Source: Chitinophagales bacterium (GTDB taxonomy: Bacteria; Bacteroidota; Bacteroidia; Chitinophagales; Chitinophagaceae). From it: a stretch of 49,776 nucleotides of DNA. The translations under genes were made by a program, and so were the position numbers. The notes below the pieces were generated by a model. That model was not told the DNA's origin. It did no database searches and was given only the letters and a program-made list of their open reading frames with translations. This document shows, one piece after another, positions 34,329 to 42,183 of the stretch. The first letter of the stretch is position 1; every line of letters begins with the position of its first letter. The stretch spans positions 1 through 49,776 of the forward strand of contig CAXNDZ010000001.1 in the NCBI GenBank assembly GCA_964201225.1, in the 5' to 3' direction.

Positions 34329-34360
34329 AAAAGCCTTCTCGTTGATTCGGGGAGGCTTTT
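34329..34360. terminator. Terminator hairpin between convergent genes
   Basis: AAAAGCCTTCTCG / CGGGGAGGCTTTT stem (with GU pairs on +) flanked by A and T runs. Confidence 0.72.
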
Positions 34361-35348
34361 ACTTTTTCGACAACTTCGCTAATTGTATGGGTTCAAAGGG
34401 ACCGTATTTGTGTTGCCTTACTGAAAAAGTATCAGCATAAGGACCAAATGGATAATCAAATGGCTTAGTTGCAAGTACTGGCCAGTCCTTGGATTTATCT
34501 TTAGTGGGTCTTGCATGGGAGCTAATATAAGCTGCTACATCCCAAGCTTGTTCTGTAGTTAAAGTAGGCTTATGATAGTTGACCGGATTAGGCATATTAT
34601 TTTTGATGAATCCTGCTAATTTTGAAAGCTGATTGATGCCTGCTGCATCGTTATAACTGTGCGCCCCCCAAAGCGGCGGATATTCATACATATTTCCTTC
34701 CTTATTCATTACACCCTCTCCGTTCAAGCCATGACATTTTTGACAGTATTGTGTATATACATAAAGCCCATTTTTAGGATTTGCTGGTACAGTTAATAGT
34801 GGTAATATTTCAATGCCAGAGCCCCTTACTTTTTCCCCTTTGGGTACCCCTTCCCCCAACCATTTTATATAAGCATAAATAGCTTTTATTTCTTTCGAAC
34901 TTGTATCTAAGGCCTTCCCATTTAAACTGCGCTCCATACAGTCATTGATTCTTTTATAAATAGTTTCAATAGATCCAGAACGTTCTCTAAATTTTGGATA
35001 GGTTGCATACACTGCACCATAATTCAAACCCCAGGGTTTGGTACCCGCTTCTAAATGACAGTTTTGGCAATTCATGCCGTTGGTTGAATGTTGCACAGTT
35101 CCTTTAGGTCCTAAATATTTTGCAGTATGCGCAATCAACTCATAACCGTACCTAATGAGTGGCCCATTTTGATTGGTGTCCAAAGGAATTTGATATTGCG
35201 AAGCACCTACCCAGGTAGTGGTATCCACTTTACTTATATCAAGTTGGACAGTTTGAGGAATAGGTTTTTTGTTAAATGTGTAAAATATATATAAGCCACC
35301 CCCCAATACAATAATAAAACCAATGATGTATAGAAACTTTTTTAACAT
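34359..35348 (-). CDS. tsdA: Diheme cytochrome c, thiosulfate dehydrogenase/tetrathionate reductase TsdA-like
   Basis: Two CxxCH (CQNCH, CQKCH), RINDCMERSLNG with active-site Cys, YPPLWG..SYN and FIKNNMP. Confidence 0.8.
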   Translation of the reverse strand: MLKKFLYIIGFIIVLGGGLYIFYTFNKKPIPQTVQLDISKVDTTTWVGASQYQIPLDTNQNGPLIRYGYELIAHTAKYLGPKGTVQHSTNGMNCQNCHLEAGTKPWGLNYGAVYATYPKFRERSGSIETIYKRINDCMERSLNGKALDTSSKEIKAIYAYIKWLGEGVPKGEKVRGSGIEILPLLTVPANPKNGLYVYTQYCQKCHGLNGEGVMNKEGNMYEYPPLWGAHSYNDAAGINQLSKLAGFIKNNMPNPVNYHKPTLTTEQAWDVAAYISSHARPTKDKSKDWPVLATKPFDYPFGPYADTFSVRQHKYGPFEPIQLAKLSKK

Positions 35349-35354
35349 CTAAAT

Positions 35355-35789
35355 TTAGTTAATACCTGCTTTTAAATAACGCCATCCTTGCTCCTGCTTC
35401 AAAATTACTTCAACCACACCCGATGGAACCGTTTTTGCTTCAATTAATAAATCTGCCTTTTCAATTTTATACTTTCGCATGGTGTTTTCACAAGCCACAA
35501 ATACAACGCCCTCATTGGTTAAGCCAGCTATGTCATTGGCGAAATATGTTTTATCCTTCACTAGTAAATTAATTGCCTTGCCATGCACCACTACTTCAAT
35601 ATGAAGATGATTAGGCCATGCCTTTTGAATATTTTTTATATTACCTATGGTGGAGGACCATGCACTGGTATCTGCAGTATTTAGTTGAATAACAATATTA
35701 TGATCTTTGATTTCAGTTTGCGCATAGCAAAATTGAAAAGAAAATACCATCGTAAATAATAGGAAAATTAAACGAGATGTATTTTTCAT
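35355..35789 (-). CDS. DsrE family protein, exported
   Basis: Signal peptide; IEVVVHG, FVACENTM and VPSGVVEV...QEQGW.Y. Confidence 0.85.
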   Translation of the reverse strand: MKNTSRLIFLLFTMVFSFQFCYAQTEIKDHNIVIQLNTADTSAWSSTIGNIKNIQKAWPNHLHIEVVVHGKAINLLVKDKTYFANDIAGLTNEGVVFVACENTMRKYKIEKADLLIEAKTVPSGVVEVILKQEQGWRYLKAGIN

Positions 35790-35853
35790 AATTAATAATT
35801 TACATGAATGTAAGAAATTATTAATTATTTAAGGCCTTAAACTCATACTGCCT

Positions 35854-37278
35854 TTATAATAATAAACTGGTGGGTATGGAATATTCTGTAAGCTTAAACT
35901 GGCCAGACTCCTTTATTTCCTTGAATCCCCCCTTCACATCTATTAAATGATCAAATCCTCTTGCTTTTAAAATAGATACAAAAATCATTGATCTATAACC
36001 TCCAGCACAATGAACATAATAGGTTTTATCTTTTTGAATTGCAGCCATACTATCGTTGATAAAGTCAAGTGGCACATTGATAGTACCTTTTACATGTTCG
36101 CTCTTATATTCCGACGCTTTACGAACATCTAATATATTAATACCTTCATCTTGTTTTTGAATTGTGGCTAGTTCATCTGCTGATATAGATTTTATTTGAT
36201 CTATTTCCTTTCCCGACTGTTTCCATGCTTCAAATCCACCAGCTAAAAAACCAATGGTAAAGTCATAACCAACACGCGCAAGTCGGGTGATGATTTCTGT
36301 TTCTCGACCTGGCTCAGCCACTAATAAAATTTCTTGTTTAATATCAGGTATCATTGCGCCTACCCAAGGAGCAAAACTGCCGTCAATGCCAATATTAATT
36401 GAATTGGGTATAAAGCCATTTGCAAAAGTTTGCGCATCTCTGGTATCTAAAATTAATGCGCCTGTTTCGTTGGCTGCAGTTTCAAATGCAGTAGGGCTCA
36501 TTGCATGTTGTCCACGTGCTAGCACCTTATCAATACTATCATATCCTTGAATATTCATCATTACATTCAATGGGAAATATCCAGGAGGTGCTACTAATCC
36601 ATCCAAAACGGCAGCTACAAATTCTGGCTTGGTCATGTCAGCTGCCAATGCATAATTGGTCAATTTTTGATTCCCCAAAGTATCCTGTGTTTCCTTACTC
36701 ATTTTTTTACCACAGGCACTGCCTGCCCCATGCGCTGGATAAACTACTATATCATTAGGCAATGGCATGATTTTATTTCTTAGGGAATCATATAAGTATC
36801 CTGCTAAAATTTCCTGTGTTAATCCTGATTTTATTTTTTGTGCCAAATCTGGACGACCTACATCTCCAATAAACAAAGTATCACCACTAAATAAAGCAAC
36901 CTCTTTTCCGTTTTCGTCAATTAACAAGTAGCAAGTGCTTTCCATGGTGTGACCTGGTGTATGTAATACCCTGATTTTAACCTTTCCCAATAAAATTTCT
37001 TCTTTATCTTTTGCCGAATGAAATTCAAAAGCGGGTGCCGCAGTAGGGCCATATATAATTTTAGCCCCTGTTTTTTTTGCAAGATCAATATGACCAGATA
37101 CAAAATCAGCATGAAAATGGGTCTCTAAAACATATTTTATTTTAGCCTGATCCAAATTGGCTTTTTGAATATAGGGGTCGACTTCTCTTAATGGGTCGAT
37201 AATCGCCACTTCGCCTTCACTCATTATATAATAAGCCCCTTGCGCCAAACAACCCGTATAAATTTGTTCTATTTTCAT
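35854..37278 (-). CDS. MBL-fold persulfide dioxygenase fused to rhodanese domains (CstB-like)
   Basis: ETHFHADFVSGH, HTPGHT, GDTLFIGDVGRPDL, PAHGAGSACG and C-terminal VHCAGGYRS rhodanese. Confidence 0.9.
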   Translation of the reverse strand: MKIEQIYTGCLAQGAYYIMSEGEVAIIDPLREVDPYIQKANLDQAKIKYVLETHFHADFVSGHIDLAKKTGAKIIYGPTAAPAFEFHSAKDKEEILLGKVKIRVLHTPGHTMESTCYLLIDENGKEVALFSGDTLFIGDVGRPDLAQKIKSGLTQEILAGYLYDSLRNKIMPLPNDIVVYPAHGAGSACGKKMSKETQDTLGNQKLTNYALAADMTKPEFVAAVLDGLVAPPGYFPLNVMMNIQGYDSIDKVLARGQHAMSPTAFETAANETGALILDTRDAQTFANGFIPNSINIGIDGSFAPWVGAMIPDIKQEILLVAEPGRETEIITRLARVGYDFTIGFLAGGFEAWKQSGKEIDQIKSISADELATIQKQDEGINILDVRKASEYKSEHVKGTINVPLDFINDSMAAIQKDKTYYVHCAGGYRSMIFVSILKARGFDHLIDVKGGFKEIKESGQFKLTEYSIPTSLLL

Positions 37279-37330
37279 TATCTGATATTTAATATCAACT
37301 GTAAAAATATACTATAAAATTAGCTTAAAG

Positions 37331-37346
37331 CGTGACAAAAATCACT
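37331..37346. promoter_or_regulatory. CRP/FNR-type palindrome CGTGA-N6-TCACT in divergent sulfur-gene promoter
   Basis: cGTGAcaaaaaTCACt between divergent MBL-rhodanese and TauE genes. Confidence 0.5.
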
Positions 37347-37455
37347 TTTGCGCAGAAAATTTTTGTCTCCCCTATTTCACTAAAAATTTACTAAGTGACT
37401 AATAGTACATATCTTGTAATGCTTAATTCTGATTTTTGCTAAAAAATAATCAAAC

Positions 37456-38247
37456 ATGGAAGTAGTCGGCTATTTCGCATCTATTTTAATTGGGGTATCA
37501 TTGGGCCTTATTGGAAGTGGCGGTTCTATTTTAACAGTGCCTGTTTTAGTATACCTGTTTAATATAAATCCAATTTTAGCAACCACTTACTCCTTATGTA
37601 TTGTAGGCTTGAGTAGTATTGCAGGTATTATTTCAAGAATGAAACAAAGATTGGTCGATATTAAAACGATCATCATTTTCGGGATACCATCAGTCATTGG
37701 TGTATTTATTGCTCGTAAATTTTTCTTGCCCAATATCCCAGATACCATTCATCTTGGCAATAGTTTAATAGGTAAAAGTAATTTTATCATGTTGTTTTTT
37801 GCAAGTTTAATGTTGGTTTCGGCATTATCCATGATTTTAGGAAAAAACAAAAAAGAGGTAGAAGGTATTTTGCCTGAATATGGCATTGCCTTAATGATGG
37901 TAGGCCTAGGGGAAGGAATGTTAACCGGTATTGTGGGTGCTGGTGGTGGATTTTTAATCATCCCTGCATTGGTTATTTTAGGTAAGCTTCCCATGAAAAA
38001 AGCGATCGCTTCCTCCATTTTTATTATAAGTATCAAATCCATTGTGGGATTTGTTGGCGATATATCACATACCACCATTGATTGGAATTTTTTAATGGTC
38101 ATTGTTTTATTAGCTACTGTCGGTATCATTATCGGCAACTATCTTAATAAAAAAATGGATGGCGCAAAACTAAAAAAAGGATTCGGCTGGTTTATACTAG
38201 TTATGGCCAGTGTTATTTTTATTGAACAATTCTTTTTTGGAAAATAG
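37456..38247 (+). CDS. Sulfite exporter TauE/SafE family protein
   Basis: GLIGSGGSILTVPVLVY, GIVGAGGGFLIIPAL, LPMKKAI and LKKGFGWF. Confidence 0.9.
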   Translation: MEVVGYFASILIGVSLGLIGSGGSILTVPVLVYLFNINPILATTYSLCIVGLSSIAGIISRMKQRLVDIKTIIIFGIPSVIGVFIARKFFLPNIPDTIHLGNSLIGKSNFIMLFFASLMLVSALSMILGKNKKEVEGILPEYGIALMMVGLGEGMLTGIVGAGGGFLIIPALVILGKLPMKKAIASSIFIISIKSIVGFVGDISHTTIDWNFLMVIVLLATVGIIIGNYLNKKMDGAKLKKGFGWFILVMASVIFIEQFFFGK

Positions 38248-39482: not shown

Positions 39483-40460
39483 CTATTTATTAGCGCCATA
39501 CACAAAGGCTTCCATAACCCTCATTGATTGTAGCGCATCCATTGTAGAACAAGGATTTACGCCATTGCCTAAAAAATAGGAAACTACTTGAGCTATAAAA
39601 TTTTGTTGGTTGTGCAATGGAGGATCAAAATGAATGATCTCTTGTTTCCCACTTTTCTCAATCTTGATATCATTACCAAATACCGGAAATGAAATTTGAC
39701 CATATTCCCCTATAATTTCAAAAACATCTTTTTCCAATTCCGCTGCCACCGTAAAATCCCATTCGCCATTAAATACAATATCATTATTAAGCTGCATGGT
39801 TCCTTTTACGCTGTCTTCGGCCGGATACAATCCTGCTTTATTTTTGGATTTGCCATGATAGTTGATGGCATCACCAAAATAAAAAAATACCAAATCCAAT
39901 TGATGTGGTGCCAAATCATAAAACAAACCACCACCTGCGAGTTCAGGGAATACACGCCAATTATCCGTTGAACCACAATTTTTACTCGGCTGCTTTAACA
40001 TTTTTATATTCACTTGTTTTACAACACCAATATAATTTTCAGCCAATAAACTTTTTACTTTTAAAAATAAGGGAAGTGCGCGACGATAATGTGCCACGAC
40101 TAACTTCACACCTGTGTCATTTGAAATTTGCTGCATGGTTTCACATTCCCGGACATTCAATGCCATTGGTTTTTCAACATACACTGGCTTACCCACCTTC
40201 ATTGCTTTTTCCGCATAAGCTGCATGAAATTTAGGGGGTGTTGCAATATAAATAGCATCCACTTCGGGATGATTAATTAATTGATCTACATCGGTGAAAT
40301 AATAAGGAACATGATGTCGTTGTGCATAGTCCTTTACTTTTTCTGCATCACGTCTCATAACCGCCATTAACTTAGAATTAGGCACTTTATTAAAGGCCGG
40401 ACCGCTTTTAACTTCGGTTACACTACCACAACCAATCATGCCCCATCGAATTATACTCAT
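39483..40460 (-). CDS. Gfo/Idh/MocA family oxidoreductase
   Basis: WGMIGCGSVTEVKSGPAF, YIATPP, YVEKPMA and DLAPHQLD. Confidence 0.9.
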   Translation of the reverse strand: MSIIRWGMIGCGSVTEVKSGPAFNKVPNSKLMAVMRRDAEKVKDYAQRHHVPYYFTDVDQLINHPEVDAIYIATPPKFHAAYAEKAMKVGKPVYVEKPMALNVRECETMQQISNDTGVKLVVAHYRRALPLFLKVKSLLAENYIGVVKQVNIKMLKQPSKNCGSTDNWRVFPELAGGGLFYDLAPHQLDLVFFYFGDAINYHGKSKNKAGLYPAEDSVKGTMQLNNDIVFNGEWDFTVAAELEKDVFEIIGEYGQISFPVFGNDIKIEKSGKQEIIHFDPPLHNQQNFIAQVVSYFLGNGVNPCSTMDALQSMRVMEAFVYGANK

Positions 40461-40599
40461 AATTAATAATTAACCAAAATCAATCATCTAATTTACCAAA
40501 AATAATTGAGGAACTTAGGTTATACAAGTATTAATCTGAATGGGTGATTAAGTAAGGAAATTAAATGCTATGTTTTTACAAATTTTGTATATCGATGAT

Positions 40600-40628
40600 A
40601 AAAAAAGGGCAGTGTAGAAACACCGCCC
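40600..40628 (-). terminator. Intrinsic terminator of tRNA-like transcript
   Basis: Minus strand GGGCGGTGT-TTCT-ACACTGCCC-TTTTTTT; the G-U pair fits the minus-strand orientation. Confidence 0.85.
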
Positions 40629-40663
40629 GTACTTTACGATTGCTTGCTAAAACCAAAACCAAG

Positions 40664-40734
40664 TTGTCATAGATGGGATCGAACCATCGTTAAGGGTTTT
40701 GCTGACCCTTGCCTCACCCCTCGGCCACATGACC
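40664..40734 (-). tRNA. tRNA-Cys(GCA)-like RNA, atypical/pseudo (A33, G1xA72 mismatch, A73)
   Basis: GGTCATG TG GCC GAGGGGTGA GGC A AGGGT CAGCAAA ACCCT TAAC GATGG TTCGATC CCATC TATGACA A. Cloverleaf with intact D, anticodon and T stems and GCA at the anticodon position. Confidence 0.8.
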
Positions 40735-40737
40735 CCA

Positions 40738-40745
40738 CAAAGATA
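40738..40745 (-). promoter_or_regulatory. Bacteroidota -7 promoter (TATCTTTG) abutting the tRNA-like RNA
   Basis: Exact TAnnTTTG only 3 nt upstream of tRNA position 1. Confidence 0.7.
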
Positions 40746-40872
40746 GGGGTTTTTTATTAATGTCTACTAAAATTATAGACTTTAATATCAAATTTTAGCG
40801 GGATCGCCATTATAACAAAAAAATAATTATATTTAACATAGCACTTTTTTTTAAAATATAAACAAAACACCT

Positions 40873-42183
40873 ATGAACAGCCGAAGAATTTTTATAAGAA
40901 ACACTGCTCTAGCTTCTGGGGCATTAATGACTTCAAATATATTTGCCAATAGTAAAATTTTCAATACGGATACTTTACGTGTTGCGACCATTGGTGTGAA
41001 TGGTATGGGATGGTCCAATACCATGGCTGCACTCTCTGTCCCTAACCTTGAAGTGGTGGCTTTATGTGATGTTGATGAAAATGTTTTAAATAAAAGAAAA
41101 GCAGAACTTTTAATCAAACAACCAGGCGTTCAGAAAATTGATACCTATAGTGATTATAGAAAAATTTTAGATCGAAAGGATATTGATATTGTAATTGTAG
41201 GTACACCCGATCATTGGCATGCCTTACAAATGATCAATGCTTGTTCAGCAGGAAAACATGTGTATGTTGAAAAGCCAGCAGGCAACTCCATTGGGGAATG
41301 TAATTCAATGGTTGCTGCAAAAAATAGGTATAATCGTATTGTACAAGTGGGACAATGGCAACGCAGTCAAAAACATTTTAAGGATGCATTAGATGTGGTA
41401 CATTCTGGACAACTGGGTAATATACGTACCACCAAGGTTTGGTGTTATCAGGGTTGGATGCGTCCGCAACCGGTGGTAGCGAATAGTGCGGTGCCTGCAG
41501 GGATTGATTATAAAACTTGGTTAGGTCCAGCAACTACACGTGAGTTTAATGCAAGCCGTTTCCATTTTCATTTTAGATGGTTTTGGGATTATGCAGGTGG
41601 CTTGATGACCGATTGGGGCGTGCATTTATTAGATTATGCCATTCAAGGTATGAATGCAGGCAATCCAAAAAGCGTAAGTGCTTTAGGTGGTAAATTTGCT
41701 TATCCTGAATTAGCGGAAGAAACACCGGATACATTGACTACGTTATATGAATTTGATAAATTCAATTTGGTATGGGATTCGGCGATGGGTATCGACAATG
41801 GCTCCTACGGTCGCGATCACGGTATTGCTTTTATTGGTAATAACGGTACGCTTATATTAGATAGAGGTGGCTGGGAAGTGATTGAAGAAAGACAATCCAA
41901 AAATAAAGTGGCGATAGCGCGACACAAAAGCGAGGACAAGGGTGTAGAATTACATTGGTTAAATTTTACCAATGCCATCAGAAACAATACACCACAAAGC
42001 TTACATTGTTCCATTGAAGATGGTGCACATATTGCGACCATTGCACAAATGGGTAATATCGCTTATCGTTCAGGCCAAAAGGTAAACTGGGATGATAACA
42101 AAAAATTATTTACAGATGCTGCTATCAATAAAGAATATTTTATGAAAGCTTATCAAAATGGATATAGCTTACCTAAGATGTAG
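40873..42183 (+). CDS. Gfo/Idh/MocA family oxidoreductase, Tat-exported
   Basis: SRRIFI signal; ALCDVD, GTPDHWH, YVEKP, VQVGQWQRS and GGLMTDWGVHLLD. Confidence 0.9.
   Translation: MNSRRIFIRNTALASGALMTSNIFANSKIFNTDTLRVATIGVNGMGWSNTMAALSVPNLEVVALCDVDENVLNKRKAELLIKQPGVQKIDTYSDYRKILDRKDIDIVIVGTPDHWHALQMINACSAGKHVYVEKPAGNSIGECNSMVAAKNRYNRIVQVGQWQRSQKHFKDALDVVHSGQLGNIRTTKVWCYQGWMRPQPVVANSAVPAGIDYKTWLGPATTREFNASRFHFHFRWFWDYAGGLMTDWGVHLLDYAIQGMNAGNPKSVSALGGKFAYPELAEETPDTLTTLYEFDKFNLVWDSAMGIDNGSYGRDHGIAFIGNNGTLILDRGGWEVIEERQSKNKVAIARHKSEDKGVELHWLNFTNAIRNNTPQSLHCSIEDGAHIATIAQMGNIAYRSGQKVNWDDNKKLFTDAAINKEYFMKAYQNGYSLPKM

Follow-up and report, generated by a model that had tools for sequence, protein, structure and literature searches.

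The window, by which we mean the whole 49,776-nucleotide stretch of DNA analysed here, carries on its minus strand a second tRNA-Cys gene of its genome. Comparison with relatives indicates that this gene is conserved in Chitinophagaceae, both within the genus and among further genera of that family, and that it is a real gene under selection whose product appears to be a tRNA-like regulatory RNA with a specific link to sulfur metabolism. Judged by its homologues, the lineage of the window has lost the bases needed for charging and has kept the fold and the anticodon. We propose, tentatively, that when sulfur or cysteine is short the gene gives rise to a tRNA-Cys mimic that stays uncharged and would tie up cysteinyl-tRNA synthetase (CysRS) through its GCA anticodon, together with a trailer RNA; that the mimic acts as a decoy is our best guess.

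ARAGORN calls a tRNA-Cys(GCA) on the minus strand at 40734-40663, and the Rfam tRNA model matches with 42.4 bits (E 1e-6), flagging pair 1-72 as non-standard. From these two calls and from homologue comparison, the tRNA-Cys-like domain spans N1 to N73 at 40664..40734 (minus strand, N1 = 40734). It is a 7/5 cloverleaf with its tertiary core kept and a 4-nt variable loop; all pairs of the anticodon and T stems are formed, there is a G7.U66 wobble, and the D stem, read from the sequence, has 3 bp plus G13.A22. The anticodon loop reads C32 A33 G34 C35 A36 A37 A38, with the GCA anticodon at 40702-40700 and A33 at 40703; A72 lies at 40665 and faces G1, and A73 is at 40664. Compared with canonical tRNA-Cys, the window copy has the 7/5 cloverleaf and GCA and departs at U73 (A73), U33 (A33), and G1-C72 (G1 x A72). 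In the accessible text of PMC9976931, U73 and GCA are the major determinants for CysRS. The base that follows, at 40663 (minus strand), is C74, as in the canonical tRNA genes of the window's genome (G000), where C74 is encoded in 18/18 ARAGORN tRNA calls; it is also present in 85/87 family and 42/42 canonical sequences. An earlier note on this DNA, made from the sequence alone, had described the minus-strand cloverleaf, the three deviations, a promoter element 3 nt from position 1, and a 35-nt tail followed by a strong terminator, all of which we find in place.

The same note had named base-call error and a sole tRNA-Cys among the findings that would count against its reading, and both are ruled out. 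A contig from DNA run X3 covers 40450-40740 with one other letter and no listed difference inside the tRNA, and genome G008 carries an identical tRNA body. G000, at 1.88 Mb and 78% complete, has canonical tRNA-Cys copies on contigs C164 and C175. Both copies lie at contig ends in a stretch of 479 nt that is 96% identical, and the pair may come from two strains sharing the bin, not from two genes. The unmodified 135-nt RNA has a folding z of -1.87; its predicted minimum-energy fold (-43.0) differs from the cloverleaf (-36.1), which counts against the cloverleaf.

BLAST matches to the window RNA were found in 16/24 genus genomes and in 0/16 genomes of other families. With covariance model searches the gene was verified by sequence in at least 71/150 genus genomes and in 17/149 family genomes, and it was not detected in roughly half of the genus sample. 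Beyond the family, the best model scores were 99.9 bits (136 genomes of other families in the order) and 103.7 bits (140 genomes from the rest of the phylum), and 52 top fetched loci, 3 of them from family genomes, contained neither the upstream box nor the exact tail motif described below. Two scans of viral contigs gave no match to the window RNA, and phage carriage was rejected. For comparison we set 87 distinct family sequences against 42 canonical tRNA-Cys controls, after moving seven loci from "other" to the family, taking L272 out, dropping the mis-registered L206 from the canonical count, and excluding most loci from one loose pattern search as chance matches; all homologue counts are inflated by close kin. 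Before the homologues were aligned, four loci lacking an apex were set aside, with L238 restored manually, and L200 and L253 were removed as well. Across the cloverleaf and terminator of 48 homologues, 96% of cells are paired and 23 of 29 pairs have changed on both sides; 0/500 shuffles matched the observed covariation, a figure that relatedness inflates.

Just upstream of the tRNA, at 40738..40745 (minus strand), lies a Bacteroidota sigma-A -7 element, TAnnTTTG, 3 nt from N1. The accessible text of PMC9723704 places this element at -12 to -5, and we predict a transcription start near 40733-40734, at about G2; the 1-72 mismatch may then simply reflect an untranscribed base here. Over the -33 region, at 40761..40781, both a pattern and a position weight matrix (PWM) identify an operator-like palindromic box of 21 bp, AGTCTAY-N7-RTAGACW, with a chance expectation of 0.07 per window. 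The pattern search finds the box within 700 nt upstream in 68/81 loci and upstream of only 2/49 other tRNA-Cys loci, both of the family type and neither a true canonical tRNA-Cys. The PWM places it upstream of 79/87 family loci, a count that is partly circular because the matrix was built from the family's own sites; in 69 the box lies 12-17 nt before a -7-like element, so that it covers the -33 region and would occupy the position of a repressor. An operator serving the divergent gene was rejected, since divergent genes change while the spacing toward the RNA promoter stays at 12-17 nt.

The distance from promoter to N1 is far less constant. It is 3 nt in only 6/81 sequences, and in close relatives leaders of up to hundreds of nucleotides, or whole genes, lie between box and tRNA. 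Because the spacing varies so widely, leaderlessness, which the earlier note had put forward, is no general design; it holds only for a sub-clade and is a product of local deletion. Ten relatives (L004/L022, L007, L009, L159, L160, L162, L168, L175, L177, and L180) have a SAM-I/IV riboswitch-type leader between the operator-promoter and the tRNA; three of them (L009, L175, L180) score above the Rfam gathering cut-off. The ORF expected behind such a riboswitch is mostly gone, with one 137-aa ORF in L022, and in G104 the leader before the tRNA-like RNA is the sole SAM-I/IV match. These leaders suggest an independent link to sulfur.

The box itself points the same way. In wider genome searches, 33 distinct box sites passed the PWM: 8 are promoters of the tRNA-like RNA, 2 lie ~3 kb upstream of a second tRNA-Cys, and 23 are elsewhere. 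Among the 23, nine precede cysH-cysD, cysG-TauE, cysM, metY, cobA-cysJ, YeiH (a sulfate exporter), ComA, DUF2061-cysH, or a DASS transporter; three are oriented toward TonB-dependent receptors that adjoin siroheme-synthase-like genes, two are near Rrf2 or DUF2061, and nine have no evident sulfur gene. Two box sites sit directly behind Rrf2 genes (L378, L379), and streamlined relatives have one Rrf2 protein that is 46-55% identical to these two and has four conserved Cys residues. This candidate regulator can be assigned to the Rrf2 superfamily only, as it falls below the CymR and IscR cut-offs (for CymR, 68-71 bits vs 195). No Rrf2 gene was found in the 78% of the genome that G000 represents. 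In five streamlined genomes of the clade, the sole box match is the one at the tRNA-like RNA (5/5); G000 has one weaker additional box, at C66:9130, before a peroxiredoxin gene. In a 201-genome sample, the box was also seen in 5 genomes that do not belong to the family. We consider the box a likely repressor site of a sulfur-regulon Rrf2 protein, and the box and the four-Cys Rrf2 protein together (L340-L379, L390-L393) a candidate sulfur regulon of Bacteroidota. Neither this box, which ties the gene to sulfur metabolism, nor the multicopy nature of the 3' end had been noticed in the earlier note.

The 35-nt tail (40663-40629, minus strand) begins with C74 and is followed by the terminator hairpin (40628-40607) and its U run. 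Within the tail, a U/G-rich spacer that varies in length and sequence (40649..40662, minus strand), and that lacks the UUUUCAUA stretch of many other copies, leads into the conserved motif AGCAAGCAAUCG (40637..40648, minus strand), the core of a multicopy 3' module. The intrinsic terminator (40600..40628, minus strand) has a covarying stem and a loop apex, mostly U-UUCU-A, that is conserved across module copies; terminator prediction at the locus found 1, against 0.4 +/- 0.6 in shuffles. G000 has five intergenic sites of the motif GCAAGCAAUCG, four of them without a tRNA (C55:2713(+), C97:1980(-), C98:1091(+), and C135:2583(-)), whose contexts are the 3' side of a BBP2 porin gene, a ~75-nt stand-alone unit with TAnnTTTG, a position behind a 50-aa ORF, and an intergenic position upstream of a gene. 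From a search of five genomes, 30 motif sites were fetched; 24 lie between genes, 16 of these being followed by a terminator. The motif with the hairpin apex is found in 11/16 family genomes vs 10/284 others, the latter mostly inside ORFs.

Among the carriers of the module are amtB, a BBP2 porin gene, small ORFs that look lipoprotein-like, and RNAs that stand alone under a promoter of their own. One such stand-alone RNA of Chitinophagaceae, ~150-190 nt long, has its own promoter, two to three GCAAUCG-type repeats, and a terminal module (L312-L314, L316-L319, L321, L322, L333, L336, L337, L457/L461), a layout that looks sponge-like; two of its loci were scanned and had no Rfam match. No Rfam family matches the 3' module. 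RRM genes are present in 4/5 genomes tested, and no motif appeared in the 170 nt before or the 130 nt after the 7 RRM genes, a search for autoregulation whose window was mis-offset. Three further ideas about the motif were rejected: exact complements, considered as mRNA targets, turned out to be further copies of the motif in sense orientation; a mini-ORF within it (Met-Ala-Ser-Asn-Arg-stop) occurs in 15/40 non-tRNA and 3/69 tRNA-fused copies and is absent in the window; and pairing of the tail with the variable loop or T stem, complementary among the A33 relatives of the window, is not kept in L003, L216, and L219 on informal reading.

Some individual copies are also worth recording. In L198-L201 the tail motif is lost and the terminator apex kept, with a separate module copy near L198 and L199, and the anticodon loop of L198 equals the module over seven bases. 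L299 (1658-1784) and L311 (1269-1394) have a sub-threshold attenuator resembling a Phe leader, placed between a module copy and an ORF that we take to be prephenate dehydratase-like. An apparent homologue of the peroxiredoxin in G017 and G131 has the tail motif in its 3'UTR (L447, L468), and in G416, from another family, a similar ORF follows immediately after a second tRNA-Cys of canonical type (L482).

The abundance of the module (37 motif matches vs 1 control match in five genomes) raises the possibility that the trailer is the real product of the gene, a sulfur-induced, FopS-like multicopy sRNA for which the tRNA part is a scaffold, either cut off, as in 3'ETS RNAs, or left on in a 135-nt RNA. 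We regard this as possible but doubtful. The same module ends mRNAs (amtB, BBP2 porin, a lipoprotein-like ORF) and stand-alone RNAs driven by their own promoters, and among the module loci scanned the box occurs only at tRNA-fused copies; a scaffold, however, would not be required to retain GCA, and tRNA and box persist without the tail module at L253 and L476-L479. These operator-driven copies without a tail, and the retention of GCA and C74, also tell against the suggestion in the earlier note that the tRNA fold is a mere 5' stabiliser. Many module copies (~23/69 tRNA-fused and 21/40 others) have a UUUUCAUA-like stretch resembling the 5' end of FopS/GibS, and 198/1,422 G000 genes begin with AUGAAAA. 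The tail in the window lacks this anti-start stretch, and its duplex energies with the 1,422 G000 start regions are no better than those of 12 shuffled tails (RNAduplex, crude gene calls).

The RNA appears to stand alone in its locus. Its downstream neighbour (39483..40460, minus strand) and its divergent neighbour (40873..42183, plus strand) both encode Gfo/Idh/MocA oxidoreductases, and neither is conserved beside the RNA. Neighbour genes of the homologues differ in family and orientation, which rules out a cis-acting leader or attenuator and, with the conserved tail, upholds the idea of a stand-alone unit. Among six RNA runs, all seen as assembled contigs and without a silent control, X15 and X17, which belong to two different studies, had contigs confined to the tail and terminator (40601-40649 and 40598-40652), with four differences, flanks unlike the window, and sequence running past the terminator; the four other runs had nothing over the RNA, and none of the six covered the tRNA part. 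A search of metagenome contigs for non-templated CCA gave one match, which was genomic. At 34359-38247, 2-6 kb from the RNA, the window has an ORF cluster without a box, in which one ORF has weak rhodanese/GloB-type similarity; its members are presumably cytochrome c-like, DsrE-like, metallo-beta-lactamase/rhodanese, and TauE-like.

What the family keeps and what it lets drift bears most directly on function. G34-C35-A36 is present in 87/87 family sequences (the sequence parser required GCA; the covariance model searches did not, and all model hits in the main fetch had it), while N32, N33, N37, and N38 vary, which implies that something reads GCA. Position 33 is U in 45/87, A in 33, C in 5, and G in 4, against U33 in 42/42 controls; U73 is found in 39/87 and C72 in 25/87, against 42/42 controls for each, and G1 is likewise present in 42/42 controls. 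U21, A59, and U60 are fixed in controls and relaxed in the family, whereas U8, A14, G18, G19, G53, U54, U55, C56, A58, and C61 are identical in 87/87, the T-loop and stem bases being partly fixed by the sequence finder. C74 is kept while N75-78 drift, which points to normal 3' maturation. Positions 1/72, 33, and 73 are relaxed in several lineages, and 19/87 homologues are fully canonical (G1-C72, U33, U73); the ancestral form was probably a chargeable isodecoder.

The window belongs to a clade of 32 sequences (support 100/99) in which A33, GCA, and C74 are found in 32/32. The anticodon arm of this A33 clade is nearly frozen, and its acceptor end shows seven 1/72/73 combinations and never U73, so that no synthetase appears to read the acceptor end. 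A canonical tRNA-Cys pattern was found in 27 of the 28 A33-clade genomes sampled, and the 28th has a second model match. We also observed that the genomes of all 28 A33-clade members lack strong CysH/CysD matches, which 49/150 genomes of the genus sample have, a difference confounded with kinship. Most fully intact homologues are in CysH/CysD-positive genomes, with kinship and genome size again confounding and with G087 and G069 as counter-examples.

The mechanism that we propose would run as follows. The four-cysteine Rrf2 protein would repress the promoter and let go when sulfur is short; the ~134-nt transcript would be cut back to C74 and receive its CCA end in the same way as the other tRNAs of the genome. 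Lacking U73, the product would be cysteinylated poorly or not at all, and with A33 it would be a poor reader on the ribosome; CysRS would still bind GCA and the L-shape, which would slow the charging of canonical tRNA-Cys and spare free cysteine. The ~60-nt trailer, predicted to be cut off at the 3' end, would join a protein-bound pool of paralogous 3'-module RNAs. U33 has a role in decoding, and we prefer CysRS over the ribosome as the reader of GCA because positions 33 and 37 drift and 34-36 do not. This proposal leaves the 19 intact homologues unexplained. In its fullest form, it describes an amino-acid-specific synthetase decoy under transcription-factor control, in which sulfur starvation would switch on, in Chitinophagaceae, an unchargeable mimic of tRNA-Cys, CysRS would be throttled by it, and the same transcript would release a sulfur-responsive member of an undescribed multicopy sRNA family; this combined version is more speculative and we hold it loosely.

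GCA could instead be read by the codon. In that case, the mature uncharged mimic would enter the ribosomal A site at Cys codons, trigger Rel, and amplify the stringent response under sulfur shortage. Such a role would need GCA, the L-shape, and the CCA end but no identity elements, which fits the pattern of conservation, and one long RelA/SpoT homologue is present in 5/5 genomes. The repeated loss of U33 (to A, C, and G) and the change of A37 to C in 3/87 sequences argue against it, since both are expected to weaken codon reading, and we think it improbable.

We consider it similarly unlikely that the RNA is a working, if atypical, tRNA, either an additional Cys isodecoder with weak charging or a tRNA that another synthetase mischarges, placing a sulfur-free residue at Cys codons in starvation. 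The 19 homologues that are canonical at 1-72, 33, and 73 would fit, as would a branch with A1-U72/G73 and another with U1-A72/G73; yet no consistent new identity emerges, with the seven acceptor-end combinations all falling in one tight clade. Checked against the identity table, the family has no G3.U70 and no long variable arm, and a search for a second CysRS in 5 genomes found a single one in each (5/5).

A decaying relic, in the sense of a tRNA pseudogene that a vanished sulfur operon left behind at its end, is very improbable: the patchy distribution of the gene and the relatives' riboswitch leaders with their missing ORFs would fit, but the stems show compensatory change, A33, GCA, and C74 are fixed throughout the clade while flanks and neighbours turn over, and operator, promoter, and terminator are kept, with the sole strong box in 5/5 streamlined genomes. 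The earlier reading is thus supported in treating the gene as a stand-alone unit that is neither randomly decaying nor the only tRNA-Cys; leaderlessness and a fold that acts as a simple stabiliser are not supported as a general design.

Returning to the decoy that we favour, the analysis makes of an apparent pseudo-tRNA a regulatory unit open to test, whose homologues grade naturally from intact isodecoders to degenerate mimics. Should the decoy be real, one amino acid would be rationed at its synthetase under a dedicated regulator, an arrangement of which we found no example in the literature searched, and in streamlined freshwater species hardly any target other than this RNA would be left to the sulfur repressor. 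Whatever the mechanism, two results stand: a candidate sulfur operator with a candidate Rrf2 regulator in Bacteroidota and, in Chitinophagaceae, a multicopy 3' RNA module that matches no Rfam family.

Several known RNAs offer partial parallels. Staphylococcal non-proteinogenic tRNA-Gly isodecoders are withdrawn from translation, charged, and used by transferases; the TMERs of gammaherpesviruses are viral RNAs with tRNA-like heads that release small RNA; and CsrB-type sponge RNAs have repeated protein-binding motifs. The stand-alone repeat RNA described above may be likened to the CsrB-type sponges by its repeated motifs. In the literature searched, which left most subscription papers outside, no sulfur-regulated second tRNA-Cys, box, or module of this kind is described.

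Four systems come closer, each compared here as described in the accessible part of the papers cited. tRNA-Other of Bacillus cereus (PMC3399842) also has a tRNA shape, a cognate-looking anticodon, poor charging, a longer transcript, and a proposed role outside translation. It flanks a genomic island, however, and has a Trp anticodon, whereas conservation across its family, an operator of its own, and a multicopy module at the 3' end mark the window gene. A duplicated 3' end, as at an island junction, was looked for in G000 and gave no second match longer than 12 nt; the neighbours are oxidoreductases and there is no viral match. The 3'ETS-leuZ RNA of E. coli (PMC8166272) is likewise the conserved trailer at the 3' end of a tRNA precursor, and its function is probably a separate one. 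In contrast, leuZ is a working tRNA whose spacer sponges RyhB/RybB with Hfq, while the tRNA in the window is degenerate, with identity bases lost, its trailer belongs to a set of many paralogous copies, and no RNA partner came to light. Excision of the trailer from a pre-tRNA as a stable RNA marks the leuZ type, and for this the kept C74 would be an indirect sign.

FopS/GibS of Bacteroides thetaiotaomicron (PMC11697453, PMC7366714) shares with the module a multicopy single-stranded stretch followed by a terminator, with some copies derived from 3'UTRs, and many module copies have a UUUUCAUA stretch complementary to start codons, like FopS/GibS (PMC11697453). The module differs in its core motif, GCAAGCAAUCG, and in family range, and the copy in the window lacks the FopS-like stretch (the R1/R1' 5' sequence) and is fused behind a tRNA; the module had no relevant match in our copy of the Rfam library, which may hold no FopS model. 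FopS RNAs are further marked by RbpB binding and by repression at start codons; on these points, RRM genes occur in relatives and the scan of start regions was negative. The selC* tRNA-Cys (PMC5389517) is also a second, non-standard tRNA-Cys, and some selC* have A1:U72. Unlike the window RNA, which is 7/5, has a short variable arm, lacks U73, and belongs to a group with a single CysRS in the genomes tested, selC* combines a long variable arm with U73, in some cases together with an 8/4 fold and a dedicated CysRS*/SelB*, and works in translation. The window RNA is thus set apart from tRNA-Other, 3'ETS-leuZ, FopS/GibS, and selC* by a defining feature of each.
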